Positions 2,253 through 25,055 of a stretch of 64,000 bases of DNA are shown one piece after another. Location of the stretch: assembly GCA_034435555.1 (NCBI GenBank), contig DAOTXC010000195.1, positions 697 through 64,696 of the forward strand, given 5' to 3'. A model generated the notes under the pieces. The model saw only the letters and a list, made by a program, of their open reading frames with translations. It did not search any database and was not told the origin of the DNA. The stretch is from Anaerolineae bacterium (lineage in GTDB: Bacteria; Chloroflexota; Anaerolineae; B4-G1; SLSP01). The position numbers and the translations under genes were made by a program. Positions within the stretch are counted from its first letter, which is position 1. Each line of letters opens with the position of its first letter.

Positions 2253-3079
2253 ACGGTCGGCGCGCTTGGGGGCTGATGTGGGTCGCCTTGTTGGCGGGCT
2301 GCGCCGCGCCGCTGTCCCCGGTCACACCGTTAGTCGAAACGGCGAGCACCCCGGTTGAGACGGTGCGCGTCGTCTGCCCCGAATCGTTGGCCGGGACGCT
2401 CACGGCGCTGGCATCCACCTATCAGCGCGTTGAGCCGACCACGCAGCTGGTGGTGGTGCAACGCGCCGACCCGCTGGCGCTGGAGCTGCTGGCCCGTGGC
2501 GACGCCGATGTCGCGCTCCTCACCTGGCTGGGCGAGCCGCGTCCCGCCGAGCTCTGGACGACGCCCCTCGCCCACGATGGCCTCGCCGTGATCGTCCATC
2601 CCCAGAACGGCCTGCCCGGATTGACCCTGGGGCAGCTGCGCGAGCTCTTCCAGGGGCGCGCCGAGGACTGGGCCGTGTGGGGGGGATTGCCCGGCAGTCC
2701 GCAGATCATCAGCCGTGAAGAGAGCGCCGGCGATTTCGCCTTTTTGCAGGCGCGGGTGATGGGAGAAGCGCAGGTGACGCTCACGGCGCTGGTCGCGCCC
2801 ACCACGGAGGCAATGCTGGCGCAAGTGGCGGCGGAGCAGCTGGCGGTGGGCTATCTATCTGTGGCGCACCTCACCCCGCAGGTGCGCGCTCTCGCCATCG
2901 AGGGCGTCCCCCCCGCCCCGGAGATGATCGCAGCGGGGCACTATCCCCTCAGCCGCGACCTCTACGTGGCGACCCTGGGCGAACCGCAGAACGCGACGCG
3001 GGCCTTTATCCAATGGCTCTTAGGGCCAGAGGGACAGGCGCTCATCGCGGCGCAGGGATTCCAGCCGCTCTCCCCGTAG
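2249..3079 (+). CDS. lipoprotein, PstS-family (phosphate-binding-like) periplasmic substrate-binding domain protein
   Basis: The start overlaps the uppP stop (ATGA). Lipobox LLAGC is present. The GQLRELFQGRAEDWAVWGG segment resembles the PstS/PBP-like anion-binding motif. Confidence 0.65.
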   Translation: MNGRRAWGLMWVALLAGCAAPLSPVTPLVETASTPVETVRVVCPESLAGTLTALASTYQRVEPTTQLVVVQRADPLALELLARGDADVALLTWLGEPRPAELWTTPLAHDGLAVIVHPQNGLPGLTLGQLRELFQGRAEDWAVWGGLPGSPQIISREESAGDFAFLQARVMGEAQVTLTALVAPTTEAMLAQVAAEQLAVGYLSVAHLTPQVRALAIEGVPPAPEMIAAGHYPLSRDLYVATLGEPQNATRAFIQWLLGPEGQALIAAQGFQPLSP

Positions 3080-10030: not shown

Positions 10031-10663
10031 TTACGCCGGGCGGTGACAGAGCCACCAATCCAGGCAACCTTCCTTACCCTTGCGCGCTTCCGCGTCCTGC
10101 TGCGTCTTGGCGGGCGGCACAATGACATCGCTCCCAAAGAGCGCGTTGTTGGGCCAGTTCGCCGGGATGGCGACCTTTTCCTTATCCGCGAGCTGGAAGC
10201 CCTTGATCATACGCAAGATCTCGTCGAAGTTGCGGCCCAGCTCCGCCGGATAATAGAGGATAGCGCGGATGGTGCTCTTCGGGTCAACGAAGAACACGGC
10301 GCGCACGGTGCTGGAACCTGCACCCGGATGCACCAGGCCCAGCATCTCCGCTACCTGACCGTGATCCGCGATCAGCGGGAACTCGATCTTGGTGTCGAGG
10401 TGCTCATCTATCCACTCGATCCATTTGATATGACTGAACACCTGGTCAATGCTCATACCGACCAGCTCCGTGTTGAGCTCACGGAACTGCGGATAGAGCT
10501 GCTGGAAAGCGTGGAACTCGGTGGTGCAGACCGGCGTGAAATCCGCCGGGTGGCTGAAAAGGATGAACCACTTGCCCTTCAAATCCTTCGGCAGATTCAT
10601 CGTCCCGTGCGTTGTGGTCACGGTCATCTCAGGAAACTTATCTCCAATCAACGGCATACTCAT
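10031..10663 (-). CDS. 1-Cys/Prx6-like peroxiredoxin (thioredoxin-fold peroxidase)
   Basis: Start at ATG ([13 protein letters not shown]), 7 nt after AGGAGG. The peroxidatic motif FTPVCTTE is present. The listed ORF extends 42 codons further upstream without an RBS. Confidence 0.85.
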
Positions 10664-10899
10664 AGTAAAACCTCCTTGTGTGAAATAGTGAATTCGGGTA
10701 TCAACGGAAAGCCCAGAACCTCGAAGCCGCGTTCGCGGTAGGTCTCGTAGAGCGTCTGCAAGCCCGCAAACTGTGGCGTGAAACCACACTTGCTCGCTGT
10801 GTTGACAATCAACAGCACCTTGCCCCGGTACTTCTCAAGTGATTCGGGAAAGCCCATCATGTTGGTCACGGTGAAATCGTAAATTGTGTCAGTCATCGT
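10660..10899 (-). pseudogene. glutathione peroxidase N-terminal fragment (truncated gpx remnant)
   Basis: MTDTIYDF...[40 protein letters not shown] matches the GPx N-terminal half, including the catalytic NTASKCG motif. The match stops at LGFP; the canonical following CNQF and the whole C-terminal half are absent. The ORF ends inside the RBS and start codon of prx. Confidence 0.6.
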
Positions 10900-10913: not shown

Positions 10914-11363
10914 CTAATTCTCTGCTGCTTCTTCCTGACACGCCGGGCAAATACCAAAAAAGTCCAGCCGGTGGCTCAGGATGTGATAGCCCGAAGCCGC
11001 CGCGACCTCTTGGGCCAGCGTCTCAAAGACAGGCACATCTGGATCAATGATCTTGCGGCAGCGGATGCAAACCAGGTGCGGATGCGGGTCGGGGTCACTA
11101 GCATCGTAGCGATTGTCATCGTCTCCGAAGCCCAATTCCAGCACCTCCCCCATCTCCTTCAAAAGATGTAACGTCTTGTAGACCGTCGCCAGACTCATCG
11201 TGGGGAATTGCGCGTGCAACTGCTCGTAGATCTGCCCCGCGCTAGGATGCGTCTCGCTATCAATCAATAGCTGCACCAAAGCGACCCGCTGCGGGGTAAG
11301 ACGATACCCCTGCTCGCGGAGCCTGGTAAGCAATTCATCCAAACGGGCTTGAGAATCCATCAC
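10914..11363 (-). CDS. Fur-family metalloregulator, probably PerR-like given the adjacent peroxidase genes
   Basis: A DNA-binding helix region is followed by [11 protein letters not shown] and ICPACQ CxxC pairs (structural Zn site) and the histidine-rich spacing of Fur/PerR. Confidence 0.8.
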
Positions 11364-11380: not shown

Positions 11381-11410
11381 GATAATAATTATTTATAGAT
11401 ATTATAAATC
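11381..11410. promoter_or_regulatory. AT-rich Fur/PerR-box-like palindromic element (GATAATAATTATTTATAGATATTATAAATC) in the fur-moaD divergent promoter region
   Basis: The core ATAATAATTAT matches the 7-1-7 PerR/Fur box architecture (TTATAATnATTATAA). It lies 18-47 nt upstream of the fur start. Confidence 0.4.
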
Positions 11411-11561
11411 ATTTACGAGATTTGTCAAGTACCAAAATACGATTTCCTGTGCTCGGCGCGATTTGCCTTGTCTCTGATTTGGGTATAATATAGGTAGTGT
11501 TGGCTATTAGCCTAAGCGATTTCCTCATCTATACTGTTGAGAGGAGCCTAGCCGTTCTGAA

Positions 11562-11846
11562 ATGAATATATTGGTAGAATTTGTGGGCGTTTCCCGGGTC
11601 TTAACAGGCGAACAGAACCTGACCCTACCCCTCGCGCCCGACAGCTCTTACCGAGATGTGATACGCCAGCTGGGCGCACGCTTCCCGGCGTTAATTGGAC
11701 AGGTCATCGCGCTAGATGGCGAAACGCTGTTACCGGAAAATCAAATCGCCCTCAACGGCAAACGTATGCTCCAGATCTCCGAGATGGATGCGTCACCGGC
11801 TGAGGGTGAGCGGCTTACATTCATGTCTATTCTTGCGGGTGGATAA
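11562..11846 (+). CDS. MoaD/ThiS-family sulfur-carrier (ubiquitin-like) protein
   Basis: 94 aa ending in the diagnostic Gly-Gly (ILAGG), placed immediately upstream of a pterin-dependent AOR. Confidence 0.7.
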   Translation: MNILVEFVGVSRVLTGEQNLTLPLAPDSSYRDVIRQLGARFPALIGQVIALDGETLLPENQIALNGKRMLQISEMDASPAEGERLTFMSILAGG

Positions 11847-11879
11847 ATACTCGTCGGCGTGCGCTGACGAGTATTTTTA
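11845..11879 (+). terminator. intrinsic terminator/attenuator between moaD and aor
   Basis: ATACTCGTC-ggcgtgcgct-GACGAGTAT hairpin followed by TTTTTAA. Confidence 0.45.
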
Positions 11880-11912
11880 ACATTCATTAATTTCCAGCAG
11901 GGAGGTCCCTTA

Positions 11913-13799
11913 ATGTACGGTTACACTGGTAAAATCCTTCACATTGATCTAGGCACGCGCAAAACGTGGATCGAGGAGAAACCGGAATCGTGGTACAAGC
12001 TCTACATCGGCGGCGTCTCGATGGCGGCGCGGCTGTTGTGGGAGAACATCGAGGTCGGCTGCGATCCGCTCTCACCCGGCAATCCCATCTGCATCGCCAA
12101 CGGCATCTTCGCCGGGACGCCGGTGCCCGTGGGCGGTAAGTACGGCCTCGCCTCCAAATCGCCGCTGACGGGCTGGATCGGCGACAGCCTCTCCGGCAGC
12201 TGGTTCTCCGTGGCGCTCAAACGCACCGGCTGGGATGGCATGGTCATCCACGGCGCGAGCGACAACTGGATCACGCTGCTGATTGATGATGAGCGGGTGC
12301 AGTTCCGCGACGCCACCAAGCTGCTGGGGCTGGGCACCTACGCCACCGAGGAGGCCATCCGCGACGAGCTCGCCGATGACCAGATCCGCTCCGCCACTAT
12401 CGGGCCGGCGGGCGAGAATGGGGTGCTCTTCGCCAACGTCACCAACGACGGCCGTCAGGCAGGCCGGACAGGCCACGGCGCAGTGTGGGGATCGAAGAAG
12501 CTCAAGGCGATCTCAGTGCGCGGCACGCACGGCGTCACCGTCGCCGATCCCGAAACGCTGATGAAGATGTCCTTCGACATCTCCGAAACCTCGCAAGGGC
12601 CGTACACGTCCAAGTATCGGTTGCTCGGCACGGCGACCAACGTGCTCAACATGAACAAATTGGGCCTGCTGCCCACCCGCAACTACCAGGAGGGCACCTT
12701 CGAGGATGCCGAGCTGGTGAGCGGCGAGTATCTGGAAGAGCACTACAAGGTCAAGAAGATCGCCTGCGCCCAGTGCCCCATCGCCTGTGAGCAGATGTCG
12801 GCGGCGGCGGACGGCCCGTACAAGGGCGCGATGACGGGCATCGAGTACGAGTGCCTCTTCGCCAACGGGCCAAACCTGGGCATCAATGACCTGCGCGCCG
12901 TGATCAAGCTCATCGAGACCTGCGACCAGGGCGGCATGGATGCCATGAGCGGCGGCGTGACCGTCTCCTGGGCGATGGAGACCTTCGAGCGCGGCATCTT
13001 CACCAAGGAAGATTTCAAGTGCGCCAAGTACCCGGAGGGCTTCGAGCCGAATTTTGGCAACGCCGAGGCCGCCGTCACCTTGATGGAGATGATCCGCGAC
13101 CGCGAGGGCATCGGTGACCTGCTCTCCAAGGGGACGCGCCGGGCCAGCGCGATTGTGGATGCGGAGCGCGGCACGGAGACCTACAAGTGGGCGATGAACA
13201 GCAAGGGCCTGGAAAGCCCCGGCTACGACGCGCGCGGCCTCAAAACCTTCGCCGTGGGCATCGCTGTGGGGACGCGGGGCGGCTGTCACAACCGCACCGC
13301 CGCCTACGATCCCGACATCCAGGGCGAGGTGGATCGCTTTTCGATTGATGATACCCGTGGGCGACTGGCCGCCCGCACTGAGGAGTACGCCGCCGTCTAC
13401 GATACGCTGCCATTGTGCAAGTTCATCCGCCGCTGCTTCACCGGCAAGGCCGACCGCGCCGGCGCCTGGCCCGCCATCGCCGCGCTCATCAATGCCACCA
13501 CCGGCTGGGAATTCGAGTACGACGATGTTGATCTCATCGGCGTGCGCGCGCATACCATCAAGAAAGCCTTCAACATCCGTGAGGGCTGGACCCGCGCCGA
13601 CGACGACCTCCCCTATCGCTGGAAGCACGACCCCATGACGAAGGGCGCTTCCGCCGGACACGTCGTCACCGACGAGGAGCTGGAATATCTCAAGGATCTC
13701 TACTACGAGGCCAAGGGCTGGACCCCTGAGGGGCTGATCCCCAAGGAGAAGCTGCTCGAGTTGGGGATGGACGACGTGGCTGAAGAGATTGGCGTTTAA
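11913..13799 (+). CDS. aor: aldehyde:ferredoxin oxidoreductase (tungsten/molybdopterin AOR family)
   Basis: An AOR N-domain is followed by the [4Fe-4S] motif KIACAQCPIACEQ (CxxCxxxC) and pterin-binding segments. 628 aa is the typical AOR size. Confidence 0.9.
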   Translation: MYGYTGKILHIDLGTRKTWIEEKPESWYKLYIGGVSMAARLLWENIEVGCDPLSPGNPICIANGIFAGTPVPVGGKYGLASKSPLTGWIGDSLSGSWFSVALKRTGWDGMVIHGASDNWITLLIDDERVQFRDATKLLGLGTYATEEAIRDELADDQIRSATIGPAGENGVLFANVTNDGRQAGRTGHGAVWGSKKLKAISVRGTHGVTVADPETLMKMSFDISETSQGPYTSKYRLLGTATNVLNMNKLGLLPTRNYQEGTFEDAELVSGEYLEEHYKVKKIACAQCPIACEQMSAAADGPYKGAMTGIEYECLFANGPNLGINDLRAVIKLIETCDQGGMDAMSGGVTVSWAMETFERGIFTKEDFKCAKYPEGFEPNFGNAEAAVTLMEMIRDREGIGDLLSKGTRRASAIVDAERGTETYKWAMNSKGLESPGYDARGLKTFAVGIAVGTRGGCHNRTAAYDPDIQGEVDRFSIDDTRGRLAARTEEYAAVYDTLPLCKFIRRCFTGKADRAGAWPAIAALINATTGWEFEYDDVDLIGVRAHTIKKAFNIREGWTRADDDLPYRWKHDPMTKGASAGHVVTDEELEYLKDLYYEAKGWTPEGLIPKEKLLELGMDDVAEEIGV

Positions 13800-13818
13800 T
13801 ATCACATAGGAGCGAGTC

Positions 13819-14310
13819 ATGGTAGCATCCACTTCAAAGTACAAATATATCACCTGCGATCCCGAAAAGTGCATCGGGTGTCAGTTGTGCGAGTACATCT
13901 GCTCGTTTACCAAGATCGGCGAGTTCAACACCTACCGCAGCCGCATTCGGACGGTACGCGCGGAGGAGATTCTCATCACGGCGGTGGCCTGCCGCACCTG
14001 TGAGAACGCGCCCTGCGTTATCGCCTGCACGCGCGATGCGCTCACGCAAGACCCGAACACCGGCATCATCCACATCAACGCGGAGCGCTGCGACGGCTGC
14101 GCCTGGTGTATCGAAGCCTGTGACTTCGGCGCGATCTCCATCAACCCGGCGACCAAGCTGGCCGAAATCTGCGACCAGTGCGAGGAGCTCGAAGATGGCC
14201 CACAGTGCGTGATCTGGTGTCCCAAAGATGCCCTGGAGCTGACCACGCCCGATCAACGCGCCCAGCGCGCCCGCCGCAAACTGGCGACGGAAGACGTGCT
14301 GGGAATGTAG
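13819..14310 (+). CDS. 4Fe-4S dicluster ferredoxin-type protein (AOR-associated electron-transfer subunit)
   Basis: Four Cys clusters: CIGCQLCEYIC, CRTCENAPCVIAC, CDGCAWCIEAC, CDQC...C. Confidence 0.8.
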   Translation: MVASTSKYKYITCDPEKCIGCQLCEYICSFTKIGEFNTYRSRIRTVRAEEILITAVACRTCENAPCVIACTRDALTQDPNTGIIHINAERCDGCAWCIEACDFGAISINPATKLAEICDQCEELEDGPQCVIWCPKDALELTTPDQRAQRARRKLATEDVLGM

Positions 14311-14384
14311 CCCTGGCGAAAAGGCGGGGGTGCGCGATAACATGGTGCGCCCTGCGCCTTTTGCTGTGACAAGGAGCCCATACT

Positions 14385-17075
14385 GTGGCTAAAACAACAA
14401 CTCATGAGATAGATTACGAAAACGATCCGCCGCGCATTGGCGTTTACGTGTGCCATTGCGGCTCCAACATCGCCAGCGTGGTGACGCCCTCGGAGGTCGT
14501 GGAATACGCGAAGAACCTGCCCGGCGTCGTGGTCGCCAAAGAGCACCGTTACGCCTGCTCCGATCCGGGGCAGAACATGATCCAGCAGGACATCGCGGAG
14601 TTTGGGCTGAACCGGGTGGTGGTGGCGGCGTGCAGCGTCGCCATGCACGAGCCGACCTTCCAGGCGTGCATCGCCGATGCGGGCCTCAATCCCTTCATGT
14701 TCCAGATGGCGAACATCCGCGAGCATTCTGCGTGGGTGCATTCGCACGAGAAAGAGGCTGCCACGGAGAAAGCCAAGGAAATCGTCGCCTCGGCGGTGGC
14801 AAAAGTGACCTACGTTCGCCCGCTGGAGATGTTCGAGGTGCCGGTGACGCGCCGCGCCATGATCATCGGCGGCGGCATCGCCGGCATCAGCGCCGCGCTC
14901 GATCTGGCCGATATGAACATCGAGACCTACCTGGTGGAGAAGTCGCCCACCATCGGCGGACGGATGGCGCAGCTGGATAAGACCTTCCCCACGATGGACT
15001 GCTCCATCTGCATCGAAGCGCCGAAGATGGTGGACGTGGGCAAGAATCCCAACATCCATATCCTCAGCTACTCCGAAGTCAAAGAGGTCAACGGCTACAT
15101 CGGCAACTTCACGGTGAAGGTGGAGCGCAAGCCGCGCTACGTGCTGCTCGATAAATGCACGGGCTGCGGCCTCTGCGTCGAGGCCTGCCCCATTGACGTG
15201 CCCAACGTCTTCGAGGAGGGCCTGGGGCCGCGCAAGGCCATCTACGTGCCGATGGCGCAGGCGGTACCTTCGATCTACACGATTGATATGGATGCCTGCA
15301 TCAAGTGCTTCAAGTGTGTGGATGCCTGCGGCGAGCTCAGCGCCATTGATTTCGCCCAGGAGCCTGAGAGCATCGAGCTGGAAGTCGGCACGATCATCGT
15401 CGCCACAGGTTTCGATAGCTGGGACCCCTCCGAGATCGAGGAATACGGCTTCGGCGTCTACGAGAACGTCACCACGATGATGGAGATCGAGCGGCTGCAC
15501 TGCGCGGGCGGGCCAACGGTGGGCGAGTTCGTCCGCCCCTCCGATGGCAAGGTCCCCAACAGCCTGGCGCTCATCCAGTGCGTCGGCTCGCGCGACAAGC
15601 GTTATAACGAGTACTGCTCCGGCTTCTGCTGCATGTACACGATCAAGAACGCGCTGTTGCTCAAGTGGCTCTACCCGGAGATGGACATCACCATCTTCCG
15701 CATTGATATCCGCACGCCGGGCAAGACCTACGAGGAGTTCTACGAGCGCGCGCGCGAGGCGGGCATCCACTTCATCCAGGGACGCCCGGCGGAGATCGTC
15801 GAGGACCCCGTCACCAAGAACCTCATCGTCCACGCCGAAAACGTCGGCACGGGCAAACACGTCGCGCTGGAGGTGGAGATGGTGGGGCTGGCGAATGCCG
15901 CCATCCCCTCGGAAGGCTCCTTCGACCTGGGGCGCGTGCTCACGGTGCCCAACGACACCCACGGCTGGTTCATGGAATCGCATCCCAAGCTCAAGCCGCT
16001 CGATACGCCCACTGAGGGCATCTATTTGGCGGGTGCGGCGCAAGGCCCCAAGGACATCCCCCAGAGCGTGAGCCAGGGCAGCGGCGCAGCGGGGCGGGCC
16101 TCGCGGGTGCTCAACGCCGGGACGTGGGAGATTGATCCTATCATCGCCTACGTGGACCCCGAACGGTGCATCAACGCGCGGGGCGGCAAGTGCGACATCT
16201 GCTATCGCGTCTGTCCCTACGGCGCGGTCATCAACCCGGCGGCCTCGGAGGGCTTTGTGCAATCCAAGACGGGCCAGGCTTCGAGCATCGTCGCGGCGAA
16301 GTGCCACGGCTGCGGGACGTGCGTGGCGGAATGCCCGCAGAACGCCATCTCACAGCACCACTTCACCGACGCACAGATCATCGCACAGCTGCACGCGCTG
16401 CTGGCCGAGAGGCCGGAGGAGAAGGTCATCGCCTTCACCTGCCGCTGGTGCAGCGGCATGGGCGCGGATAACGCCGGCACCAGCCACTTCGAGTATCCTG
16501 CCAACACACGCAACATCCTGGTGATGTGCGCCGGGCGCGTGGATGCGGACTTCGTCATGGAGGCCTTCCGGCTGGGTGCGGGTGCGGTGCTCGTTTCGGG
16601 CTGCCATCCGCAGGACTGCCACTACATCTCCGGGCGTAACTTTGCCGAGGCACGCATCCAGCGGCTCTTCGGGCAACTGGAGAAGATCGGCATCACGCCC
16701 GGACGCTTCCGGCTGGAATCCGTCTCGGCGACGGAGGGCGCGAAGTGGGCGCGCATCATGCGCGAGATGAGCGCTATTGTCACGGAAATGGGCGTCGAGG
16801 GCGTCCGTGCGGAGAACGAGCAGGCGCTGCCACATCTGGAAAAACGGCTCAAGCGGATGCGCGAAGTACCTGAGGTAGCTTACCTGATGCGCCTGGTCGA
16901 AAGCGCGCATCCCCAAGAGGCGGCAACCGGCGTCAAGCAGGCGCGAGATAAGGGCCTGACCCAACAGGTCGGGATGGCGGGCTGCCAGCTGCCGGAGGTG
17001 ACGGCCTGTGACGCCTGCCAGCTGGCCAATGCCTGCGCGCCCGAAATCCAACAGGCGAAAGGAGGCCAGCAATGA
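14385..17075 (+). CDS. hdrA: HdrA-like FAD/[4Fe-4S] flavoprotein fused to a C-terminal MvhD domain
   Basis: Dinucleotide-binding motif AMIIGGGIAGISAA, multiple CxxCxxC clusters, and a C-terminal FTCRWCSGMGADNAG...VMCAGRVD...VSGCHPQDCHY signature of the MvhD [2Fe-2S] domain. Confidence 0.85.
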   Translation: MAKTTTHEIDYENDPPRIGVYVCHCGSNIASVVTPSEVVEYAKNLPGVVVAKEHRYACSDPGQNMIQQDIAEFGLNRVVVAACSVAMHEPTFQACIADAGLNPFMFQMANIREHSAWVHSHEKEAATEKAKEIVASAVAKVTYVRPLEMFEVPVTRRAMIIGGGIAGISAALDLADMNIETYLVEKSPTIGGRMAQLDKTFPTMDCSICIEAPKMVDVGKNPNIHILSYSEVKEVNGYIGNFTVKVERKPRYVLLDKCTGCGLCVEACPIDVPNVFEEGLGPRKAIYVPMAQAVPSIYTIDMDACIKCFKCVDACGELSAIDFAQEPESIELEVGTIIVATGFDSWDPSEIEEYGFGVYENVTTMMEIERLHCAGGPTVGEFVRPSDGKVPNSLALIQCVGSRDKRYNEYCSGFCCMYTIKNALLLKWLYPEMDITIFRIDIRTPGKTYEEFYERAREAGIHFIQGRPAEIVEDPVTKNLIVHAENVGTGKHVALEVEMVGLANAAIPSEGSFDLGRVLTVPNDTHGWFMESHPKLKPLDTPTEGIYLAGAAQGPKDIPQSVSQGSGAAGRASRVLNAGTWEIDPIIAYVDPERCINARGGKCDICYRVCPYGAVINPAASEGFVQSKTGQASSIVAAKCHGCGTCVAECPQNAISQHHFTDAQIIAQLHALLAERPEEKVIAFTCRWCSGMGADNAGTSHFEYPANTRNILVMCAGRVDADFVMEAFRLGAGAVLVSGCHPQDCHYISGRNFAEARIQRLFGQLEKIGITPGRFRLESVSATEGAKWARIMREMSAIVTEMGVEGVRAENEQALPHLEKRLKRMREVPEVAYLMRLVESAHPQEAATGVKQARDKGLTQQVGMAGCQLPEVTACDACQLANACAPEIQQAKGGQQ

Positions 17076-17740
17076 CCAACGTACTCAACCCCTTCGTCGT
17101 AGAGTTGTTGGAACGGCCCGGCGGCGATAAGGTGCTGCAATGCTACCAGTGCGCCACCTGCTCTGGCTCGTGCCCGGTGATTGACGAGATGCAATACGGC
17201 CCCCGCCGCATCCTGCACCTGATCCAATCCGGCGAGGAGGCCCTGGTGCTCTCCAGCCGTGATATGTGGTTCTGCGTCTCGTGCTACTCCTGCGCCAGCC
17301 GCTGCCCCCGCGAGATTCCCATCACCGAGCTGATGGCGACGCTGCGGGAGCTGGCGGTCGAGAAGGGGTACGCCGAGGACCTGGAGGCCGACTTCGGCCA
17401 ATCGTTCATGGAAACCTACAAACATCACGGGCGGCTCTTCGAGCCGGAGCTGATGATCCGCTACTACCTCCGCACCTTCGATATCAAGGGCCTGTTGGGA
17501 ATGCTCCCGCTGGCGCTGCCGATGCTCCTCAAGGACAAGTTGCCCTTCCTGCCGGAGCGCATCGAGAACCCGGAGGAGATGGAGGCGCTCCTGCCTGAGC
17601 CGCACACCCCCTCCGCCGAGGAGAGAGCGCGTCGCCGCCGGCGCTGGCTGCCGTGGCTGACGAGCGGCGTCGTGACCCTGCTATTGGGCGCGGGCGGGCT
17701 TGCCTGGCATGTCGTCGCGCGCCGCAAGGAGGACGAGTGA
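17072..17740 (+). CDS. hdrC: HdrC-like 4Fe-4S dicluster protein with a C-terminal transmembrane anchor
   Basis: CYQCATCSGSCP and CVSCYSCASRCP ferredoxin motifs, and the terminal hydrophobic helix WLPWLTSGVVTLLLGAGGLAW. The start overlaps hdrA by 4 nt. Confidence 0.75.
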   Translation: MTNVLNPFVVELLERPGGDKVLQCYQCATCSGSCPVIDEMQYGPRRILHLIQSGEEALVLSSRDMWFCVSCYSCASRCPREIPITELMATLRELAVEKGYAEDLEADFGQSFMETYKHHGRLFEPELMIRYYLRTFDIKGLLGMLPLALPMLLKDKLPFLPERIENPEEMEALLPEPHTPSAEERARRRRRWLPWLTSGVVTLLLGAGGLAWHVVARRKEDE

Positions 17741-18600
17741 TGAAATACGGCTATTATCCCGGATGCACGCTGCTTTCGAGCGCGAAGGAGTATGACCTCT
17801 CGCTGCGGCTGAGCTTCGCCCAGCTGGGCATCGAGTTGGTGGAGCTGGACGACTGGAGCTGTTGCGGCGCGGTTCACGGCGAGGGCAAGGGCGTGATCGC
17901 GCTCCCCGCCCGCAACCTGGCGCTCGCGGAGGCCCAGGGATTGGATACCATCATCGCGCCGTGCAGCGGCTGCTACCGCAACCTGCGGCGCGCCAGCCAG
18001 TCGGTGCAAAAAGACAAAGCCGCGCGCCAGATGGTCAACGAGAGCCTGGTCGAGGGGCTGGAGCTCAAAGGAAACGTGCGCGTCCTGCATCCCCTCTACG
18101 TGCTCACGCACGAGGTCGGCCTGGAGCGGATCAAGGCGCAGGTGGTGCGTCCCCTCACCGAGATGAAGGTGGCGGCCTACTACGGCTGCATGTTGACCCG
18201 TCCCAAGGACGAGTTCGACAGCACGGAGCGCCCCACGGGCCTGGATGAGCTGCTGGTCGCGCTGGGGGCGACGCCGGTGGACTATCCCTTCAAGGCGAAG
18301 TGCTGCGGCGGCGCGCTGGCGATCTCGCACAGCGAGGTGACAGCGAAGCTCACGGGCAAGGTGCTCGATTCGGCCAAAGGCGCGGGCGCGGATACAGTAA
18401 CGCTGGCGTGTCCCATGTGCCACACGGCCCTCGATCTCTACCAGGGCAAGGCCGCGCGCGCTGTAGGCCACGATCTGGAACTGCCGGTGTTGTACTTCAC
18501 CCAGCTGTTGGGGCTGGCGCTGGGCATCGAAGCGTCCAGGCTCGGCTTCCAACGGCACATCATCTCCCCAGAGCCACAGCTGGCGCGGCTGGGATTCTGA
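17740..18600 (+). CDS. hdrB: HdrB-like CCG-domain protein
   Basis: ATG overlaps the hdrC stop (TGATG). Two Cys-rich CCG-type motifs (WSCCGA..., KCCGGA...). Confidence 0.8.
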   Translation: MKYGYYPGCTLLSSAKEYDLSLRLSFAQLGIELVELDDWSCCGAVHGEGKGVIALPARNLALAEAQGLDTIIAPCSGCYRNLRRASQSVQKDKAARQMVNESLVEGLELKGNVRVLHPLYVLTHEVGLERIKAQVVRPLTEMKVAAYYGCMLTRPKDEFDSTERPTGLDELLVALGATPVDYPFKAKCCGGALAISHSEVTAKLTGKVLDSAKGAGADTVTLACPMCHTALDLYQGKAARAVGHDLELPVLYFTQLLGLALGIEASRLGFQRHIISPEPQLARLGF

Positions 18601-18621
18601 CACGCGGCGAAGGAGTTTATC

Positions 18622-19584
18622 ATGCAACGTGGTGCAACCAAAAAAACCAAGACGGAGCAACAAATCGTCCTCGACCGCAAAATGGTCACCCTGCACAACA
18701 CCCTCACCTGGGACCTGGAACGCTGCGTGGGCTGCCAGATCGGGCCGCTGGTCTGCCCAAAGGACGCCATCAGCCATGTGCCGGCGGTGTTGGAGGAAGG
18801 CCGGCTGACACAAAAGGCGTCGGTGGACATTGACCCGGAGACGTGCGTCTTCTGCGGCATGTGCGTGGTCATGTGCCCGATGAACGCCATCACCATGGAG
18901 GTCAACGGCAAAGAGGAGATCCCGGTGCAAAAGGCCGAGGCCTTCCCGATGTTGATCGAGTCCAACAAGTTTGACCGTGACGCCTTCGATATGGAGCGCA
19001 AGGACTTCGTCATCGAGAACTGCCCGACGAACGTGATCAGCTACGTCGAAGAGAGCGACACGCTCAAGGTGGATCAGAAGCATTGCATCCGCTGCCGCCA
19101 ATGCGAAGTCGCCAGCGATGGCGCGTTCACGGTGGTGCAGCCGTGGCAGGGCAGCGTCGAATTACGGCGGGAGCTGTGCGTGGAGGGCTGCCTGGCCTGT
19201 GCGGACATTTGCCCGACGCGCGCGCTGCACATTGACGAGGATGGCAACCTGGCGTTGGCGGATTACTACTGCATCAAGTGCGGCGCGTGTATGCAGGTCT
19301 GCCCCATCAAAGCCGAAGTAGAGACGTATGAAGTCCCCTTCGAGTACGCAGGAACGACCTACACCCGCGAGCACGAGCGCATCACCAACCTGGCGGCGCT
19401 GCCCATCGTGGTGGAGCGCTGGCGCGTGGGCCACACCGAGGTGCAGAGCGGCGCATGGATCGCGGCGGTCATCCGCCTGGCCGATGACCGGGCCGGCGCG
19501 ATGGAGCTTGATCGCAAGCGGGCGCTCAAGCGGCGCGACCTACTCACGGCCCTCAAGGGCGGGCGGGCGCTGCTGGAAAAATAA
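18622..19584 (+). CDS. polyferredoxin-like protein (five or more 4Fe-4S binding motifs)
   Basis: CVGCQIGPLVCP, CVFCGMCVVMCP, CIRCRQCEVAS, CVEGCLACADICP, CIKCGACMQVCP. Confidence 0.75.
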   Translation: MQRGATKKTKTEQQIVLDRKMVTLHNTLTWDLERCVGCQIGPLVCPKDAISHVPAVLEEGRLTQKASVDIDPETCVFCGMCVVMCPMNAITMEVNGKEEIPVQKAEAFPMLIESNKFDRDAFDMERKDFVIENCPTNVISYVEESDTLKVDQKHCIRCRQCEVASDGAFTVVQPWQGSVELRRELCVEGCLACADICPTRALHIDEDGNLALADYYCIKCGACMQVCPIKAEVETYEVPFEYAGTTYTREHERITNLAALPIVVERWRVGHTEVQSGAWIAAVIRLADDRAGAMELDRKRALKRRDLLTALKGGRALLEK

Positions 19585-19602
19585 CTTCACAGCCAGACAA
19601 GA

Positions 19603-19643
19603 TCAGGGACAGGCAAATGCCTGTCCCTGATGTGTTTCTATTG
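19603..19643 (+). terminator. strong intrinsic terminator closing the aor-hdr operon
   Basis: Perfect 12-bp stem TCAGGGACAGGC-aaat-GCCTGTCCCTGA followed by TGTGTTTCTATTG. Confidence 0.7.
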
Positions 19644-19755: not shown

Positions 19756-22434
19756 TCAAGCAACTTTAACTTTCGCGTCACGCGGCAAGGTGAACCAGAA
19801 GGTGCTCCCCTCCCCCACCGCGCTCTCGACGCCCACCTCACCGCCGAGCTTTTCCACAATCCGCCGCACGATGGACAATCCCAGGCCGTAGCCCTTCGCC
19901 CGCACCTGTCCTAGCCGCGTGAACTCGGTGAACAACTTCGCCTGCGCCTCCGGCGTCAACCCCGCGCCGTCATCGCGCACCCAGAAACGAACGCTGGCTT
20001 GTCCCTCCCGCTGATCCCAACCGAGTTCGATTCGGGGCGGATCGCCGCCATACTTGAGCGCGTTGCTGATGTAGTTGACCCACACCTCCTCCACCCACGG
20101 CGCATGTCCAAATGCCTTCGGCCAGGTAGCAGGCTCCGGCGTAACGAGCTGCGCCTGCGCCTTCTCCAGCGCCAATCGTAACCGGTCGCAAGCCTCCTGC
20201 ACCACCGCGCCCATCGCCAGCGGCTCCGCGATCACCTCATCCTTGCGCACGCTGGCCAACAAGAGCAACTCATCAACGATGACCTGAAGCTTCTCGCTGG
20301 AATGCAGCACAGTTTCGAGCGCCTCTGTGCGCTCTTCCAGCGTCATCGTATCATGGGTTTGCCAAAGGAATCCCAGGTAACCGATCACTGTCCCCAGAGG
20401 ATTCTTGAGATCGTGGGCCACCGTGTGCGCGAAGGCGTCCAGCTCGGCGTTTTGCAGCTCCAACTGCTCGGCATAGTGGCGCAATGCCTCCTCGGCCTCC
20501 TTGCGGGCCGTAATATCCTCTTTGATGGCAATGTAGTGGGTGACGCGGCCCTCCGCATCCAACACGGGCGCAATAGCGGCGGATTCCCAATACAGCGATC
20601 CATCTTTGCGCCGATTGAGCAGCTCGCCATACCAGATCTCTCCGCGCGTAATGGTCTGCCACAGATTGCGATAAAACTCCGGCGGATGATGGCCCGATTT
20701 GAGCACGCGCGGGTTCTGACCCTGCGCCTCCTCAACGGTATAGCCAGTGATGCGCGTGAAGGCCGGATTGACGTATTCAATTGTCCCCTCGGGATCGGTG
20801 ATGAGAATTGTGCTGGCGCTCTGCTCGATGGCGCGGGAGAGTTTGCGCAGTTTCAGGTTCTGCGTCTCCAACCGCTGCTGATAGAGCTGCAGCTGCTCCT
20901 CGCTGCGCTTGCGCTCCACGATACTCCAAATGACATCGGCCACGTAAGCGACGAGCGCCACATCCCGCTCGTTATAGTCCTCCGGCTTATTGCCCACCCC
21001 CAGTATGGAGACGATATGCCCGTTGCGCAAGGTCGGGACAACCAGCTCGCGCTTGATCTCGGCGTGACCTGGCGGCAAGCCCTTACGGTGCGGCAGTGCG
21101 GCGTAGTCGTTGTGGATGATGGGGCGACGCTCACGCACACAATCCACCCACACACCGGCCTGATCAATAGGATAGTGCCGCCCTTCGCCCTCAGCCTGGA
21201 AAAATTCCTCTATTGTGCGCGTGGACCACGCCTGAAGCGAGAGCGTTTGTTGATCCTCCTCCACGAAGTGGTAAAAGCCAATAGGACTCTGGGTCAGTGC
21301 GCCAATCTCATCGAGCGCACGCTGCATCAACGCTTCCAATGAATGCTCAGCGGCGAATTCCACCAATTGCAGACGCAAGCGCAACACCATCTCAGCCCGC
21401 TTACGCTCGGTGATGTCGCGCGCGATGGTCTGCAGGGCCGGGCGACCCTGATATTCCAGGCGTCCGGTGATGACCTCCACATCCAAAATGCGGCCATCCA
21501 GGCGTATAAACCGTTCTTCGAGCAGCGGGGCTGGCTCGCCATCGCTGAGTACCTGGGCCACCCGTTGCTGCGCTACTGCCCGAAAGTCGGGATGGACAAA
21601 CTCGATAGCAGAACGTCCCAACAGCACTTCTGGCGAGGCAGCCCCCAACAATTTCGCAGCAGCAGAGTTCGCAAAGACTATCGCCTGATCCCGATAGACA
21701 ACAATCGCATCGGGGGAGAGTTCCACCAACTGCCGATAACGCGCTTCGCTCTCCTGCAAAGACTGCTGCTGCATCTCGACATTGAGGAACAGCCGGCGAT
21801 TGATCAACATAAAGATGATGAGGATAGTAGCGAAGACCAACACTTGATAGGCAACCATCAGCAGCCCCTCGTACAGCGCTTCGTTTTGTAGAAAGTCACT
21901 CACCGGAGAGATAAACAAATTGGCCAGGATGCAGGCGGCGCTGATCAGGAAGTAGCCGACAAAGACCGTACTGGCCCACTTAGTTATAGGATAAAATTCT
22001 TTCCCCAGCTGTTGCATCAACAAGAGACATTGGAGCAAGATAATCAGAATGGCGAGCGATGCATTGATATTACGCGCGCCCAGATTGGGTTGGATAAAGG
22101 TAAAATAGGCATGGACAGCGATAAATATCCCCAAAAGGAAGCCCTGACGCCACCAATGTTTCGGCTGCTCGAAAAAGTACACCAGCCCCATGTAGAAGAA
22201 GATCAACCCAGCTGCCAGAAATGCGTTGCCCACCATGATGGAAAGCCACACCGGGATCACGCCACGCAGCACGAAGAGCACCATCGCCAGGGTGTGGATG
22301 GCGAAATCGGCCAACCACAAACCCAGGCCCGCGAAGCGGTGGCGATATTGCTGCCACAACAACGCAATGATGATCGTGCCGAGCACGGAAGCGATAACCT
22401 GGTTGAGAATGATCGTTCGCATGTCAATAGACAT
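19756..22434 (-). CDS. 7TM-receptor-type multi-sensor histidine kinase (N-terminal 7TM, PAS, GAF, PAS, HisKA, HATPase_c)
   Basis: About seven N-terminal TM helices, two PAS-like regions flanking a GAF-like region, an H-box (VAHDLKNPL) and ATPase G-boxes. Confidence 0.85.
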   Translation of the reverse strand: MSIDMRTIILNQVIASVLGTIIIALLWQQYRHRFAGLGLWLADFAIHTLAMVLFVLRGVIPVWLSIMVGNAFLAAGLIFFYMGLVYFFEQPKHWWRQGFLLGIFIAVHAYFTFIQPNLGARNINASLAILIILLQCLLLMQQLGKEFYPITKWASTVFVGYFLISAACILANLFISPVSDFLQNEALYEGLLMVAYQVLVFATILIIFMLINRRLFLNVEMQQQSLQESEARYRQLVELSPDAIVVYRDQAIVFANSAAAKLLGAASPEVLLGRSAIEFVHPDFRAVAQQRVAQVLSDGEPAPLLEERFIRLDGRILDVEVITGRLEYQGRPALQTIARDITERKRAEMVLRLRLQLVEFAAEHSLEALMQRALDEIGALTQSPIGFYHFVEEDQQTLSLQAWSTRTIEEFFQAEGEGRHYPIDQAGVWVDCVRERRPIIHNDYAALPHRKGLPPGHAEIKRELVVPTLRNGHIVSILGVGNKPEDYNERDVALVAYVADVIWSIVERKRSEEQLQLYQQRLETQNLKLRKLSRAIEQSASTILITDPEGTIEYVNPAFTRITGYTVEEAQGQNPRVLKSGHHPPEFYRNLWQTITRGEIWYGELLNRRKDGSLYWESAAIAPVLDAEGRVTHYIAIKEDITARKEAEEALRHYAEQLELQNAELDAFAHTVAHDLKNPLGTVIGYLGFLWQTHDTMTLEERTEALETVLHSSEKLQVIVDELLLLASVRKDEVIAEPLAMGAVVQEACDRLRLALEKAQAQLVTPEPATWPKAFGHAPWVEEVWVNYISNALKYGGDPPRIELGWDQREGQASVRFWVRDDGAGLTPEAQAKLFTEFTRLGQVRAKGYGLGLSIVRRIVEKLGGEVGVESAVGEGSTFWFTLPRDAKVKVA

Positions 22435-22559
22435 CTTCTACTCCGGCTCCTTTCAGGGGGACCATCACCTCAAGTATAATTCACATTCACGAACCCACAA
22501 CCGCCAACACGCCTCCGCGCTTTCCCTAACGCCAAAATTTGTTAAAATATCCCTCACAT

Positions 22560-25055
22560 ATGAAAACAACAACACAAATCAAAAAGTACGCCCTTTGGGT
22601 CTGGCTGGCGCTCAGCCTGCTGGTAAGCCTGCCCTACCTGTATGCAGCATTCACCACCCTGCCGGGACGCGCCATCGCGCCACTGGATGACGCCTACATC
22701 ACCTACCAGTACGCCCGCCAGATCGCGCTGGGCCATCCCTACCAGTTCAACACCGGCGACGCTCCCAGCACCGGCATGACCAGTCCACTCTTCGGCTACC
22801 TGCTTGGCGGGGCCTATCGCCTCGGCGCGACCGATGAACGGCTCATCGCCCTCGCGCTGGGGCTGAGCGTGTTGTGGCTGGCGCTGGCCGCGCACCTCAC
22901 CGCCGCGCTCACCCGCCGCCTCCTCGCCGCGCACGAGCGCGCTCCCGGCCCCTGGCCCACCGTCGCAGGACTGCTGACCCTGCTCTCCGGTGGCCTCCAA
23001 TGGGCCAGCTGCAACGGTATGGAGACCGGCCTCGTCACCGTACTGCTCCTCGCCGCCCTGGTCGCCCACCTCGATGAACGCCCCGGCTGGATGACCCTGT
23101 GGCTCGCGCTGGCCGGCCTCGCCCGCCCGGAAGGGCTGCTACTCACGCTGCTCATCGGCGCGCTCACCCTCCTGCAGGCGCTGCTAGAACGCCGCCGCCT
23201 GCCCTGGCGCATCCTGGGCCTGCTCACACTCGCCCTCATCGCGGGGCTACTGCCCTCTTTCGTCAATTGGCTGCTCACCGGCGAGAGCAGCGCTGCCGGG
23301 TTGCAGGGCAAAGCCTGGTGGTATAATGTCCCGCGCCATTGGGATAATGTCATCCTGTCAATCCTGGATGGCTATCAACGGGTCATCTTCGGCGAACTGC
23401 TAGGACTTATGCCCCGCCTGCGCGGTTTCTTGCCCCCCTTCGTGCTGCCGCTGGCCCTGCTGGGATGGGGGTACCTGGCCCGCCGCCGCGATTGGCACAA
23501 ACTGGCCCTCACCAGCCTGTGGTTCTTCGGCGGGACGCTCTCCACCGCCGGCCTCATCACCGTGACGTGGCACTTTGGACGCTATCAGGCGCCCTTCATC
23601 CCTTTACTCAGCGCGGTCGCCGCGGTGGGCCTCGCGCCCCTCACCATCCGCTGGCGACGACCAGCGCGCCAGGCGCTTGTTCTGGCGCTCCTGCTCGCCA
23701 CCACGGCCTGGAGCACACCCGCTTTGCAGCTCTACCGGCGATCCGTTCACACCGTGGCACACCAACAGCTCGCCCTAGCCGATTGGCTACGCGAAAACAT
23801 CCCGCCCGACGCGCGCGTCGGCGTCCACGACACGGGCGCCCTCCGCTATCTGGGCGGCCATCCCACCTACGATCTCGTCGGCCTCACCACCGCCAGGGGC
23901 GCCTTCCCCTGGCGTGAGGGCGCGGGCAGCACCTTCGAGTACATGGAGCATCACCCCGCCCGCCCCGACTACTTCGCCATCTACCCCGATGCCTTCTCCA
24001 TCCCTTACATCGCAGCCACCGACCTCTTCGCCACGGCGCTCTACAGTGTCACCGTGGCCGACTACGGCGTCACCAGCGCCGGACCTACCCAGGGAATCTG
24101 GCGGGCGGATTGGAGCCTGGCGGGCAGCGGCGATCAACCGGCACAGCACGACATCCGCGCCCGGCTCGCGGGGCTGCCCCAGGTGGATGCCGTTGATCTG
24201 GCCGATATGGCCGACGAGGAGGTGCACGGCTGCACCTGGTGGCAGGGAACGCTGCGCCCCGGCTTCCCCACCGAACTCTGGCAGCTAGACTACCGCGCTC
24301 CGGCGACCGGCCCCGTCCTTGATGGCGGGCGGCTGCTCAACGGCGGCCTCAGCTGCCAGCTCGCCACCGAGCCGGGCGAACCGCTCTGGCTCGTCGTGCG
24401 CCTGCACCCACAGACCCCCGCCACCATCCAGGTGATAGTGGACGGGAACCCGATAGGCCCCTGGCGCACGCCAGCGCAGCCCGGCTACTGGCTTGAGAGC
24501 CTCTATCCCATCCCCGCCATAGCCATCACCAGCGAGCGGACCACCATCACGCTGGAAGTGCGCGACGTGGCAGGCGGCCATTACGCGCCCTACTACCTCT
24601 GGGCCTACCAGGGCACACCGCCCGCCACCTCTCCCCTGCCCACCACGCCCCTCCTCACCGCCTTCGCCGCCGCCGATGCCACCCTCTTCCTGCACGGGTA
24701 CGATCTTCCGGCCACCGAGTGGCGTCCCGGCGATACGCTGCCGCTCACGCTCTACTGGGAGGCGGCCAACGCCACCGCCAACGACGCCAAAGTCTTCGTC
24801 CACCTCTACGATGAGAGCGGCGCGCTCGGCCCTCAAGCCGACGGCTGGCCCCTCTACGAGACTCGCCCGCCCTACACCTGGCTGCCCGGCGAGATGATCG
24901 CCGATCCACGGCAGCTCCAACTTCCAACGGAGCTGCCCGCAGGTCGCTACACCCTGGCCGTCGGCCTCTACCCGCCCGAAGGCGGGCCGCGCCTCCCTAT
25001 CGCCGGCACCACGGCGGATTACGTGATCCTCACCACGCTTACCGTGGCCCCCTGA
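22560..25055 (+). CDS. large polytopic membrane protein, GT-C-fold glycosyltransferase-like (ArnT/PMT-like), with a C-terminal extracytoplasmic domain
   Basis: ATG at 22560 (MKTTTQ). An early loop has the acidic motif DDAYITYQYA typical of GT-C enzymes, followed by at least 10 TM helices and a roughly 350-aa soluble C-terminus. The family assignment is tentative. Confidence 0.5.
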   Translation: MKTTTQIKKYALWVWLALSLLVSLPYLYAAFTTLPGRAIAPLDDAYITYQYARQIALGHPYQFNTGDAPSTGMTSPLFGYLLGGAYRLGATDERLIALALGLSVLWLALAAHLTAALTRRLLAAHERAPGPWPTVAGLLTLLSGGLQWASCNGMETGLVTVLLLAALVAHLDERPGWMTLWLALAGLARPEGLLLTLLIGALTLLQALLERRRLPWRILGLLTLALIAGLLPSFVNWLLTGESSAAGLQGKAWWYNVPRHWDNVILSILDGYQRVIFGELLGLMPRLRGFLPPFVLPLALLGWGYLARRRDWHKLALTSLWFFGGTLSTAGLITVTWHFGRYQAPFIPLLSAVAAVGLAPLTIRWRRPARQALVLALLLATTAWSTPALQLYRRSVHTVAHQQLALADWLRENIPPDARVGVHDTGALRYLGGHPTYDLVGLTTARGAFPWREGAGSTFEYMEHHPARPDYFAIYPDAFSIPYIAATDLFATALYSVTVADYGVTSAGPTQGIWRADWSLAGSGDQPAQHDIRARLAGLPQVDAVDLADMADEEVHGCTWWQGTLRPGFPTELWQLDYRAPATGPVLDGGRLLNGGLSCQLATEPGEPLWLVVRLHPQTPATIQVIVDGNPIGPWRTPAQPGYWLESLYPIPAIAITSERTTITLEVRDVAGGHYAPYYLWAYQGTPPATSPLPTTPLLTAFAAADATLFLHGYDLPATEWRPGDTLPLTLYWEAANATANDAKVFVHLYDESGALGPQADGWPLYETRPPYTWLPGEMIADPRQLQLPTELPAGRYTLAVGLYPPEGGPRLPIAGTTADYVILTTLTVAP

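Follow-up and report, generated by a model that had tools for sequence, protein, structure and literature searches.

What could be gained by combining an aldehyde:ferredoxin oxidoreductase (AOR) in one operon with the subunits of a heterodisulfide reductase (Hdr)? The question is raised by positions 11562–19643 of a 64-kb stretch of contig DAOTXC010000195.1 (the whole stretch is referred to below as the window), which derives from a metagenome-assembled genome (MAG) of an uncultured member of the Anaerolineae (Chloroflexota). The region consists of seven co-directional open reading frames (ORFs), as judged from ORF coordinates, Pfam and NCBIfam. An earlier, sequence-only reading had assigned these to a MoaD-like protein, an AOR, a ferredoxin, an HdrA–MvhD flavoprotein, HdrC, HdrB and a polyferredoxin, and the Pfam and NCBIfam domains bear out all seven assignments. 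Our working hypothesis, to which we give somewhat less than an even chance, is that the operon encodes a single multi-subunit enzyme in which the AOR and its small subunit (WorL and WorS, together WorLS) would be plugged, as electron donor, into a flavin-based bifurcating HdrA hub. The seven genes are as follows.

11562–11846, plus strand: worX, ThiS/MoaD-like protein of 94 amino acids (aa) (Pfam ThiS, E 3e-4; NCBIfam SAMP1-like)
11913–13799, plus strand: worL (aor), large subunit of a predicted tungstopterin aldehyde:ferredoxin oxidoreductase, 628 aa (AFOR_N, 1e-69; AFOR_C, 4e-110)
13819–14310, plus strand: worS, small electron-transfer subunit of 163 aa with 16 Cys (Fer4_11; four [4Fe-4S] motifs)
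14385–17075, plus strand: hdrA–mvhD fusion, FAD-binding flavoprotein of 896 aa (NCBIfam HdrA2, 1021 bits; FlpD/MvhD domain)
17072–17740, plus strand: hdrC, 222 aa, two Cx2Cx2Cx3CP [4Fe-4S] motifs (TIGR03290, 4e-26)
17740–18600, plus strand: hdrB, two CCG domains (Pfam CCG, twice; TIGR03288, 3e-59)
18622–19584, plus strand: polyferredoxin, 320 aa, about five to six cluster motifs (NCBIfam FwdF-like, 4e-31)

As the sequence-only reading had it, hdrA and hdrC overlap by 4 nucleotides (nt; ATGA) and hdrC and hdrB by 1 nt (TGATG); an AGGAGG-type ribosome-binding site precedes each overlap, and this translational coupling across the hdrA/hdrC/hdrB junctions counts in favour of one enzyme. The four non-overlapping gaps in the operon measure 66, 19, 74 and 21 nt.

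The cofactor-binding residues of the individual subunits are intact. WorL belongs to the WOR/AOR family over its full length, with complete AFOR_N and AFOR_C domains and the cofactor ligands in place; it aligns end to end with the Pyrococcus furiosus AOR (PfAOR, 1aor; 1e-109), to residues of which its CAQCPIAC, IEYE, CDQGGMDAMS, RGGCHNR and DTLPLCKF segments correspond, and it retains the equivalents of Cys288, Cys291, Cys295, Cys494, Glu313 and His448 and both pterin-binding Asp motifs. PfAOR is also its best solved relative, followed by WorL of Acetomicrobium mobile (9mqx_D), with AorB of A. aromaticum (8c0z_A) a further match, and by its active-site residues it is an ordinary aldehyde-oxidizing AOR, predicted to be of the tungsten type. 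WorS, encoded beside WorL, has the 16 Cys of four [4Fe-4S] motifs, and is closest among solved proteins to WorS of the A. mobile WorABCSL complex (9mqx_E; 2e-23) and then to AorA (8c0z_C). The small protein encoded first in the operon ends in Gly-Gly and is named here after WorX, the ThiS-like gene found beside WORs (PMC13328260); it is probably a maturation factor for the pterin cofactor, not a subunit of the enzyme.

The possibility that HdrA might lack the FAD and bifurcation-linked Cys motifs, raised in the sequence-only reading, is answered by alignment with the solved Methanothermococcus thermolithotrophicus protein (5odc_A; 55% identity, 810 bits over residues 15–673): the GGGIAG FAD motif and all cluster Cys motifs are present, among them those of the N-terminal cluster and of both ferredoxin domains (inserted and C-terminal); in the C-terminal one, the first motif carries a five-residue insertion (Cx7Cx2Cx3CP). 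The MvhD [2Fe-2S] domain follows at about residues 678–808, where MvhD chains match at 1e-28 to 1e-32. HdrC matches 5odc_C (5e-20) with both cluster motifs aligned; HdrB matches 9sfi_C and 5odc_B over its full length (about 1e-50) and, aligned with the solved methanogen enzyme, has the full complement of ten Cys for its two non-cubane clusters. HdrA, HdrB and HdrC therefore carry all cluster ligands of that enzyme and are HdrABC proteins by sequence. The polyferredoxin, whose best solved relative is FmdF, sits in the place that MvhB takes in mvhDGAB and so represents an MvhB/FmdF-position subunit, which the earlier reading had not recognized. MvhA and MvhG are absent from the cluster and from about 10 kb of sequence on each side, and the MvhD domain is present as the fusion to HdrA. 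A separate observation concerns the end of the HdrA–MvhD protein, where a tail of about 90 aa includes a Cys-rich stretch at residues ~866–896 (window 16980–17072) of the form C-x7-C-x2-C-x5-C (GCQLPEVTACDACQLANAC); it may be an extra metal site, and the sole Mvh-type HdrA compared (from related locus L016) is without it.

The evidence that ties the two halves of the operon together comes from related loci. A genome scan, restricted to one genome per species, yielded 54 loci (AOR identity 71–93%), all from MAGs of Anaerolineae or unclassified Chloroflexota, some of them titled ‘Chloroflexia’, and a metagenome scan yielded 80 further loci (77–91%), a set that probably overlaps in part with the first. 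Several metagenomes carry contigs identical or near-identical to the window, and the window AOR has over 120 clusters of homologues with identities of at least 80%, those with names being Anaerolineae or Chloroflexota MAGs. No relative from outside the Anaerolineae emerged from the two scans or from protein searches, which returned only AORs of at least 71% identity, with Chloroflexota as the named matches. Among loci extending far enough to be informative, HdrA/MvhD directly follows the AOR–WorS pair in 38 of 40 genome loci (window included) and in 46 of 55 metagenome loci, that is, in 84 of 95, so that the functional AOR–Hdr unit proposed from the sequence of this one locus is strongly backed by synteny. 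A polyferredoxin 57–90% identical to that of the window ends nearly all complete clusters, and two divergent loci of the Flx type described below have one at 38–42%. The same seven-gene cluster surrounded HdrB homologues of 68%, 61% and 60% identity in all three look-ups, and in every context examined the HdrB and polyferredoxin of the window were seen only inside such clusters. worX lies upstream of the AOR gene in about two-thirds of the related genome loci by a tblastn screen, whose misses may stem from a threshold stringent for a 94-aa query.

What lies between hdrA and the polyferredoxin gene varies by lineage, and the HdrC–HdrB pair (HdrCB) proves to be one of several cassettes, a feature absent from the sequence-only reading. 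The HdrCB cassette of the window is found at 11 genome and 14 metagenome loci. At 15 and 10 loci, respectively, its place is taken by an Mvh cassette, consisting of a 318-aa HdrC-like/ferredoxin/MvhD adaptor with MvhG and MvhA of a Vhu-type NiFe hydrogenase; at 9 and 5 loci by a Flx cassette, with an HdrC-like/ferredoxin protein, MvhD and three sulfhydrogenase beta/gamma-like proteins, a Flx-like set that includes an NAD-binding flavoprotein; and at loci L046 and L132 by an Fdh cassette, in which a protein with an MvhD domain and an Fe-S protein accompany a selenocysteine-containing formate dehydrogenase. At a few loci there is no cassette, the adaptor alone, or inserted toxin–antitoxin and GNAT genes, and in one HdrCB-type lineage (L029/L063) the polyferredoxin has been lost and WorLS–HdrACB kept. 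From its gene contents, the slot between worS/hdrA and the polyferredoxin gene appears to behave as a hot spot of insertion and replacement. Every complete cassette opens with an HdrC-type dicluster domain; in the adaptor of L016, residues 10–123 match HdrC, 97–183 the C-terminal ferredoxin domain of HdrA and 192–306 MvhD. The order MvhD–MvhG–MvhA–polyferredoxin of the Mvh-type sister clusters is that of mvhDGAB.

On the AOR tree, Mvh-type and Flx-type loci are intermingled, which indicates that the WorLS–HdrA linkage survives repeated replacement of the cassette; HdrCB-type loci, the window among them, make up a single derived clade. The AOR–HdrA linkage holds from 71% to 100% AOR identity and across at least four cassette contents. 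HdrA of the HdrCB clade shares only 56–58% identity with that of the other types, and the figure between Mvh-type and Flx-type HdrA is 77%. In all Mvh-, Flx- and Fdh-type sister clusters hdrA is interrupted by an in-frame TGA, which is read as selenocysteine (FPTMDCSI-U-ILAPK; at 13058–13060 in L016, at the corresponding site of 28 further genome loci and at about 6942–6953 in L046). HdrCB-type HdrA mostly has Cys there (FPTMDCSI[C/U]I), as does the window (FPTMDCSICI); L095 and L142 still carry the TGA. FdhA of the Fdh-type cassette shows a typical selenocysteine break of its own. Further observations on these relatives concern a second AOR paralogue and mobile or defence genes. In some sister genomes the paralogue gene lies immediately upstream, in divergent orientation to the cluster; in L016 (7256–9340, minus strand) it has 694 aa with an N-terminal extension, is 32% identical to the Hdr-linked AOR and is not itself linked to Hdr genes. 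Beside or inside relatives’ clusters there are genes for a tyrosine recombinase/integrase, toxin–antitoxin, GNAT and HTH proteins and a type I restriction–modification methylase (L016 19394–20380, minus strand; L052 16536–17321; L116 16151–17565; L141 4823–5272 and 7875–8138; L080 4615–6753).

From the gene content, the intact cofactor motifs, the conserved linkage and the modularity of the cassettes we infer that the proteins form a complex in which WorLS would dock on the MvhD arm and in which electrons would flow from aldehyde to HdrA and there be bifurcated. Aldehyde would be oxidized at the tungstopterin of WorL, and the two electrons would travel singly via WorS to HdrA, entering at its fused MvhD domain with the [2Fe-2S] cluster and then reaching the bifurcating FAD. 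From there one electron would take the HdrC arm to HdrB and its two non-cubane clusters, at which a disulfide would be reduced, and the other would travel through the ferredoxin domain inserted into HdrA to the polyferredoxin and on to ferredoxin or some low-potential consumer; WorX would mature the cofactor. In the sister lineages the HdrC arm would lead to a NiFe hydrogenase (Mvh type), an NAD(H) module (Flx type) or a formate dehydrogenase (Fdh type), with H+, NAD+ or CO2 as the high-potential acceptor, and the family as a whole would run a reaction of the form ‘aldehyde to ferredoxin plus X’ in which X can be swapped. That a frame of WorLS, HdrA/MvhD and polyferredoxin persists while its middle is replaced speaks for a single enzyme family with HdrA as the hub, and the HdrC-type start common to the cassettes fits attachment to the HdrC, or high-potential, arm of HdrA. 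This wiring gains support because each variant would then be a self-contained enzyme with three arms and because the Flx-type variant would, by analogy, reproduce the reaction of the Bfu-type WorABCSL with an HdrA hub. The loss of the polyferredoxin in L029/L063 suggests that WorLS needs no polyferredoxin to reach HdrA, which mildly favours the same model.

A close functional parallel is Class IV WorABCSL (Bfu-type; A. mobile and Eubacterium limosum), which likewise joins an AOR-type WorL and a four-cluster WorS to a multi-subunit bifurcating module, has the ThiS-like worX in its operon, and in A. mobile couples aldehyde oxidation strictly to the joint reduction of NAD and ferredoxin (PMC12318220, PMC9304861). 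In the Flx-type sister clusters the net reaction, from aldehyde to both NAD+ and ferredoxin, would be identical. In WorABCSL, however, the bifurcating module is BfuABC (FMN-containing, NuoEFG-like), whereas here it would be HdrA(FAD)/MvhD–HdrC–HdrB with an additional polyferredoxin, and the second acceptor predicted for the window is a disulfide instead of NAD+. No WorA, WorB or WorC (BfuABC-type, NuoEFG-like) domains were found in the operon or its flanks, which places it outside Class IV as delimited in PMC13328260.

Several points weigh against the wiring that we favour. The entire case is built from gene neighbourhood and motifs. The aldehyde/acid couple lies at about -580 mV, already below ferredoxin; bifurcation is therefore not thermodynamically required, and a disulfide as acceptor would waste much of the energy. 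In known Hdr complexes, Mvh, Fdh and Flx serve for electron input and not as acceptors. The flanks of HdrCB-type clusters held no conserved thiol/disulfide partner genes, only ABC exporters, a nuo operon and a Mur ligase. About 11 of the 95 informative loci have no HdrA within 3.6–7 kb downstream, and in the HdrCB clade a conserved terminator-like hairpin parts worS from hdrA, so that two transcription units are possible. Finally, the polyferredoxin most resembles FmdF/FwdF, through which a tungstopterin enzyme of methanogens receives low-potential electrons (PMC13518236), and this favours the opposite wiring.

In that opposite wiring, which we regard as unlikely yet as a serious contender, WorL would stand at the low-potential end and reduce a carboxylic acid to an aldehyde. 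Electrons from H2, formate or NADH, supplied by the Mvh, Fdh or Flx module (the donor of the window type being encoded elsewhere), would enter through MvhD and reach the FAD; the high-potential electron would go to HdrBC and the disulfide, and the low-potential one would reach WorL by way of the FmdF-like polyferredoxin and then WorS. The operon would then be the bacterial counterpart of the Hdr–Fwd/Fmd supercomplex of methanogens, with the AOR replacing formylmethanofuran dehydrogenase. This accounts for a polyferredoxin whose best solved relative is FmdF, for sister clusters in mvhDGAB order and for cassettes that are classical donor modules of Hdr. In methanogens, moreover, FmdF and VhuB bind the ferredoxin domain inserted into HdrA and wire electrons to a tungstopterin site, and the Vhu and Fdh input modules are interchangeable (PMC13518236); in class II benzoyl-CoA reductase, too, an HdrA-like module has a tungsten subunit of the AOR family as its low-potential acceptor (PMC13328260, PMC9304861). 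Wired in this way, however, no variant would be self-sufficient, the HdrCB type having no donor and the Mvh, Flx and Fdh types no HdrB, and both the HdrC-type start of every cassette and the MvhD domain fused to HdrA itself would be left unexplained. The lineage that kept WorLS–HdrACB after losing the polyferredoxin also speaks against it, as do the active-site residues of WorL, which are of the ordinary aldehyde-oxidizing type, and the strong kinetic preference of AORs for aldehyde oxidation (M. thermoacetica Km data quoted in PMC6895022). The more specific proposal that bifurcation at HdrA feeds the AOR directly through polyferredoxin and WorS, reducing acid to aldehyde (about -580 mV) while bypassing the free ferredoxin pool and drawing on swappable H2, NADH, formate or thiol–disulfide cassettes, seems to us, if anything, slightly less likely again. 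In the wiring with WorLS as donor, the acid-reducing direction is thermodynamically awkward.

The likeness to the methanogen system, in which Mvh/Vhu (or Fdh) joins HdrABC and Fwd/Fmd, extends to an HdrA close to the solved enzyme with all its ligands, canonical HdrB and HdrC, an MvhD adaptor, an FmdF/MvhB-like polyferredoxin, a tungstopterin partner and interchangeable modules, with MvhDGA of the sister clusters in methanogen gene order. The differences are a bacterial host from the Anaerolineae without methanogenesis, an AOR instead of formylmethanofuran dehydrogenase as the tungsten partner, and an MvhD fused to HdrA with no hydrogenase in the window. The window cluster is not an Mvh–Hdr(–Fwd) complex in the strict sense, since the group 3c MvhA and MvhG are missing from it; both are present at 15 sister genome loci. 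Biosynthesis of coenzymes M and B is not expected in Anaerolineae, nor is CoM-S-S-CoB expected as the substrate here.

It could also be that the operon holds two independent neighbours, a ferredoxin-dependent Class II WorLS and a separate bifurcating HdrA(MvhD)CB–polyferredoxin complex with its donor encoded elsewhere, their adjacency reflecting shared regulation or a shared ferredoxin pool. We consider this improbable. The hairpins of the operon, the first of which bears on it, are the following.

14315–14366 (about), plus strand: worS–hdrA hairpin, GC-rich, with A-tract and T-tract flanks (dG -33.4, z -3.2)
11845–11879, plus strand: worX–worL hairpin, terminator-like, 14-bp stem, 4-nt loop and T-run (dG -21.8 kcal/mol, z -5.7)
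19602–19631, plus strand: terminal hairpin, perfect 13-bp stem, 4-nt loop (dG -30.3 kcal/mol, z -5.5)

The worS–hdrA hairpin, which the sequence-only reading overlooked, is strong, terminator-like and followed by a conserved ribosome-binding site (AAGGAG); hairpin and T-run are kept in the closest HdrCB-type relatives, with compensatory changes at 5 of 17 pairs, and its conservation in the HdrCB clade is what an independent pair would predict. The same interpretation is favoured by the roughly 11 of 95 loci at which WorLS lacks HdrA immediately downstream, by the restriction–modification methylase (L080) and toxin–antitoxin genes (L116 and L141) that can separate the parts, and by the fact that Class II WorLS enzymes are common (PMC13328260). 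The hairpin is absent from Mvh- and Flx-type clusters, however, where the worS–hdrA gap is 0–50 nt, and mere neighbours are hard to reconcile with a linkage kept over 71–100% AOR identity and at least four cassette contents, or with an HdrB and a polyferredoxin seen only within such clusters. The second AOR of L016, at 32% identity, is not Hdr-linked, from which the linkage appears specific to this AOR lineage. As a candidate partial terminator or attenuator, the worS–hdrA hairpin may yield more WorLS than Hdr, an excess that would fit, by analogy, the stoichiometry of the A. mobile nanowire, (WorSL)3:(WorABC)1 (PMC12318220).

The other two hairpins had been noted before. The one between worX and worL is real; the idea that it serves to express the carrier protein in excess fails as a general device because the hairpin is strain-specific, with no counterpart in related loci, where the worX–worL gap is mostly 2–40 nt. 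At the end of the operon, a terminator with a perfect 12-bp stem had been described: the stem is indeed perfect (13 bp as found here), and the T-run that follows is weak for a terminator (GTGTTTCTATTG). In L029, the HdrCB-type locus without polyferredoxin, the moaD–aor and worS–hdrA spacers are filled by short tandem repeats built of GCCATTC and GATTT(T)G units.

A one-complex reading that involves no energy coupling, in which HdrA would be a flavin/Fe-S adaptor to whichever terminal module is attached (for disulfide, H+, NAD+ or CO2) and the polyferredoxin a side door to the ferredoxin pool, we judge very improbable. All the proposed acceptor reactions are exergonic from aldehyde, which makes bifurcation unneeded, and it is reported that not all HdrA(BC) complexes bifurcate. 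Against this, the cofactor set of the bifurcating enzyme is complete in HdrA, low-potential branch (inserted ferredoxin domain) included, a dedicated polyferredoxin has been conserved alongside it, and coupling in Wor–Bfu is obligate although both of its half-reactions are exergonic (PMC9304861). Identity as a benzoyl-CoA reductase was rejected, given the low similarity to BamB (4z3w_A; 172 bits over residues 2–424 only, against 371 bits for the aldehyde-type AOR), the four clusters of WorS (three in BamC) and the missing BamGHI (Bfu) module.

As a precedent for the architecture, BamBCDEFGHI of Geobacter metallireducens is nevertheless instructive: it combines AOR-family BamB and WorS-like BamC with HdrA-, HdrBC- and MvhD-like subunits, and is the sole characterized complex of an AOR-family protein with Hdr-type subunits that we found in the literature searched (PMC13328260). 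Its BamDEF subunits are divergent, whereas the Hdr subunits here are canonical, and the predicted substrate here is an aldehyde or acid, not an aryl-CoA. Another bacterial HdrABC with an MvhD-type adaptor is FlxABCD–HdrABC of Desulfovibrio vulgaris, proposed to bifurcate to ferredoxin and the DsrC disulfide and active in ethanol/aldehyde metabolism, and Flx-like genes fill the cassette slot of some sister clusters. The window itself has no Flx genes and no DsrC context, and its AOR lies inside the operon, unlike that of Desulfovibrio, which is separate and acts via the ferredoxin pool.

How the operon is controlled was also reconsidered, as the sequence-only reading had placed it under a Fur/PerR-type promoter. 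A divergently transcribed Fur-family gene (10914–11363, minus strand), with PerR as its best-scoring NCBIfam family, and a PerR-box-like element are present as described. The box (TTATAGATATTATAA, 11393–11407; two mismatches, where 0.1 sites per window are expected by chance at up to three mismatches) is a palindrome that overlaps the -10 element of perR’s own promoter (11401–11428, minus strand; TTGACA-16-TATAAT, a perfect 12/12 match to the sigma-70 consensus), which suggests tight autoregulation of perR. The plus strand has only one good -10 element, the candidate for the operon, and the box lies some 77 bp upstream of it.

11484–11489, plus strand: candidate operon -10 element TATAAT, read from the sequence

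The accompanying -35 (TTTGCC/TTGCCT, 15–16 nt upstream) is weak and below the -35 threshold of the promoter scan. The genes for PerR, a truncated glutathione peroxidase and a peroxiredoxin adjoin the cluster in this strain only and are absent at all 54 other species loci, so that PerR control as a conserved feature of the operon was rejected. No Moco/Wco riboswitch or other Rfam element was found in the 5′ region of the operon. The glutathione peroxidase looks like a truncated gene: a 78-aa remnant (10660–10896, minus strand), upstream of the 1-Cys peroxiredoxin gene (10031–10663, minus strand) and overlapping its start by 4 nt, matches over residues 1–65 the N-terminus of a 183-aa glutathione peroxidase, catalytic NTASKCGFT included, before diverging and reaching a stop, and it is kept in contigs from different samples.

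The earlier description of an aerobic-looking chromosome region does not stand, the host being an Anaerolineae MAG and the rest of the window housekeeping in character (gyrA, murJ, EPSP synthase, glgC, G6PD, tRNAs), with no oxidase or respiratory genes within its 64 kb. A lone substrate-binding protein (2249–3079) was considered as a candidate TupA and set aside, its match being weak, PstS-family-like and below cut-off. An 892-aa multi-PAS/GAF sensor protein (19756–22434, minus strand) converges on the end of the operon, an adjacency not kept in relatives. In a 625-aa ORF (54913–56790, plus strand), 6-phosphogluconate-dehydrogenase domains (NAD_binding_2, partial, and 6PGD C-terminal) are joined to a complete glucose-6-phosphate dehydrogenase; the ORF is either a gene fusion or an artefact of ORF calling. 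Four long ORFs have no Pfam match at E <= 1e-6 (22539–25055, plus strand, 838 aa; 31514–32965, minus strand, 483 aa; 42096–43376, plus strand, 426 aa; 60434–61999, minus strand, 521 aa), and at least some of them may be shadow ORFs.

No description of an AOR–HdrABC or AOR–HdrA–Mvh cluster was found in the full-text literature searched, coverage of which is incomplete, so that an earlier mention is possible; the Chloroflexota genome papers examined list AOR and Hdr/Mvh separately and never as one cluster. The WOR classification of 2026 recognizes five classes, with class II benzoyl-CoA reductase as the only Hdr-related member, and makes no mention of Chloroflexota or of hydrogenase-linked WORs (PMC13328260). 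The novelty consists in known modules brought together in an apparently undescribed, conserved and modular combination, in a lineage that is ecologically abundant. Anaerolineae are among the most abundant fermenters of anaerobic digesters and sediments, and their energy metabolism is largely inferred. If our hypothesis of an HdrA-hub aldehyde oxidoreductase is true, it would represent a second, independently assembled route to bifurcating aldehyde oxidation beside the Bfu-type WorABCSL, and the AOR–HdrA–polyferredoxin core would add a type outside the five-class scheme; were the complex an acid-reducing analogue of Hdr–Fwd, a new bacterial redox couple of the heterodisulfide type would be implied. 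The cassette variants amount to a natural experiment on how HdrA hubs accept different modules, and the window type offers a bacterial system in which to ask which disulfide is reduced by the HdrB of a non-methanogen. There is, in addition, a possible link to acid, aldehyde and alcohol conversions of biotechnological relevance.

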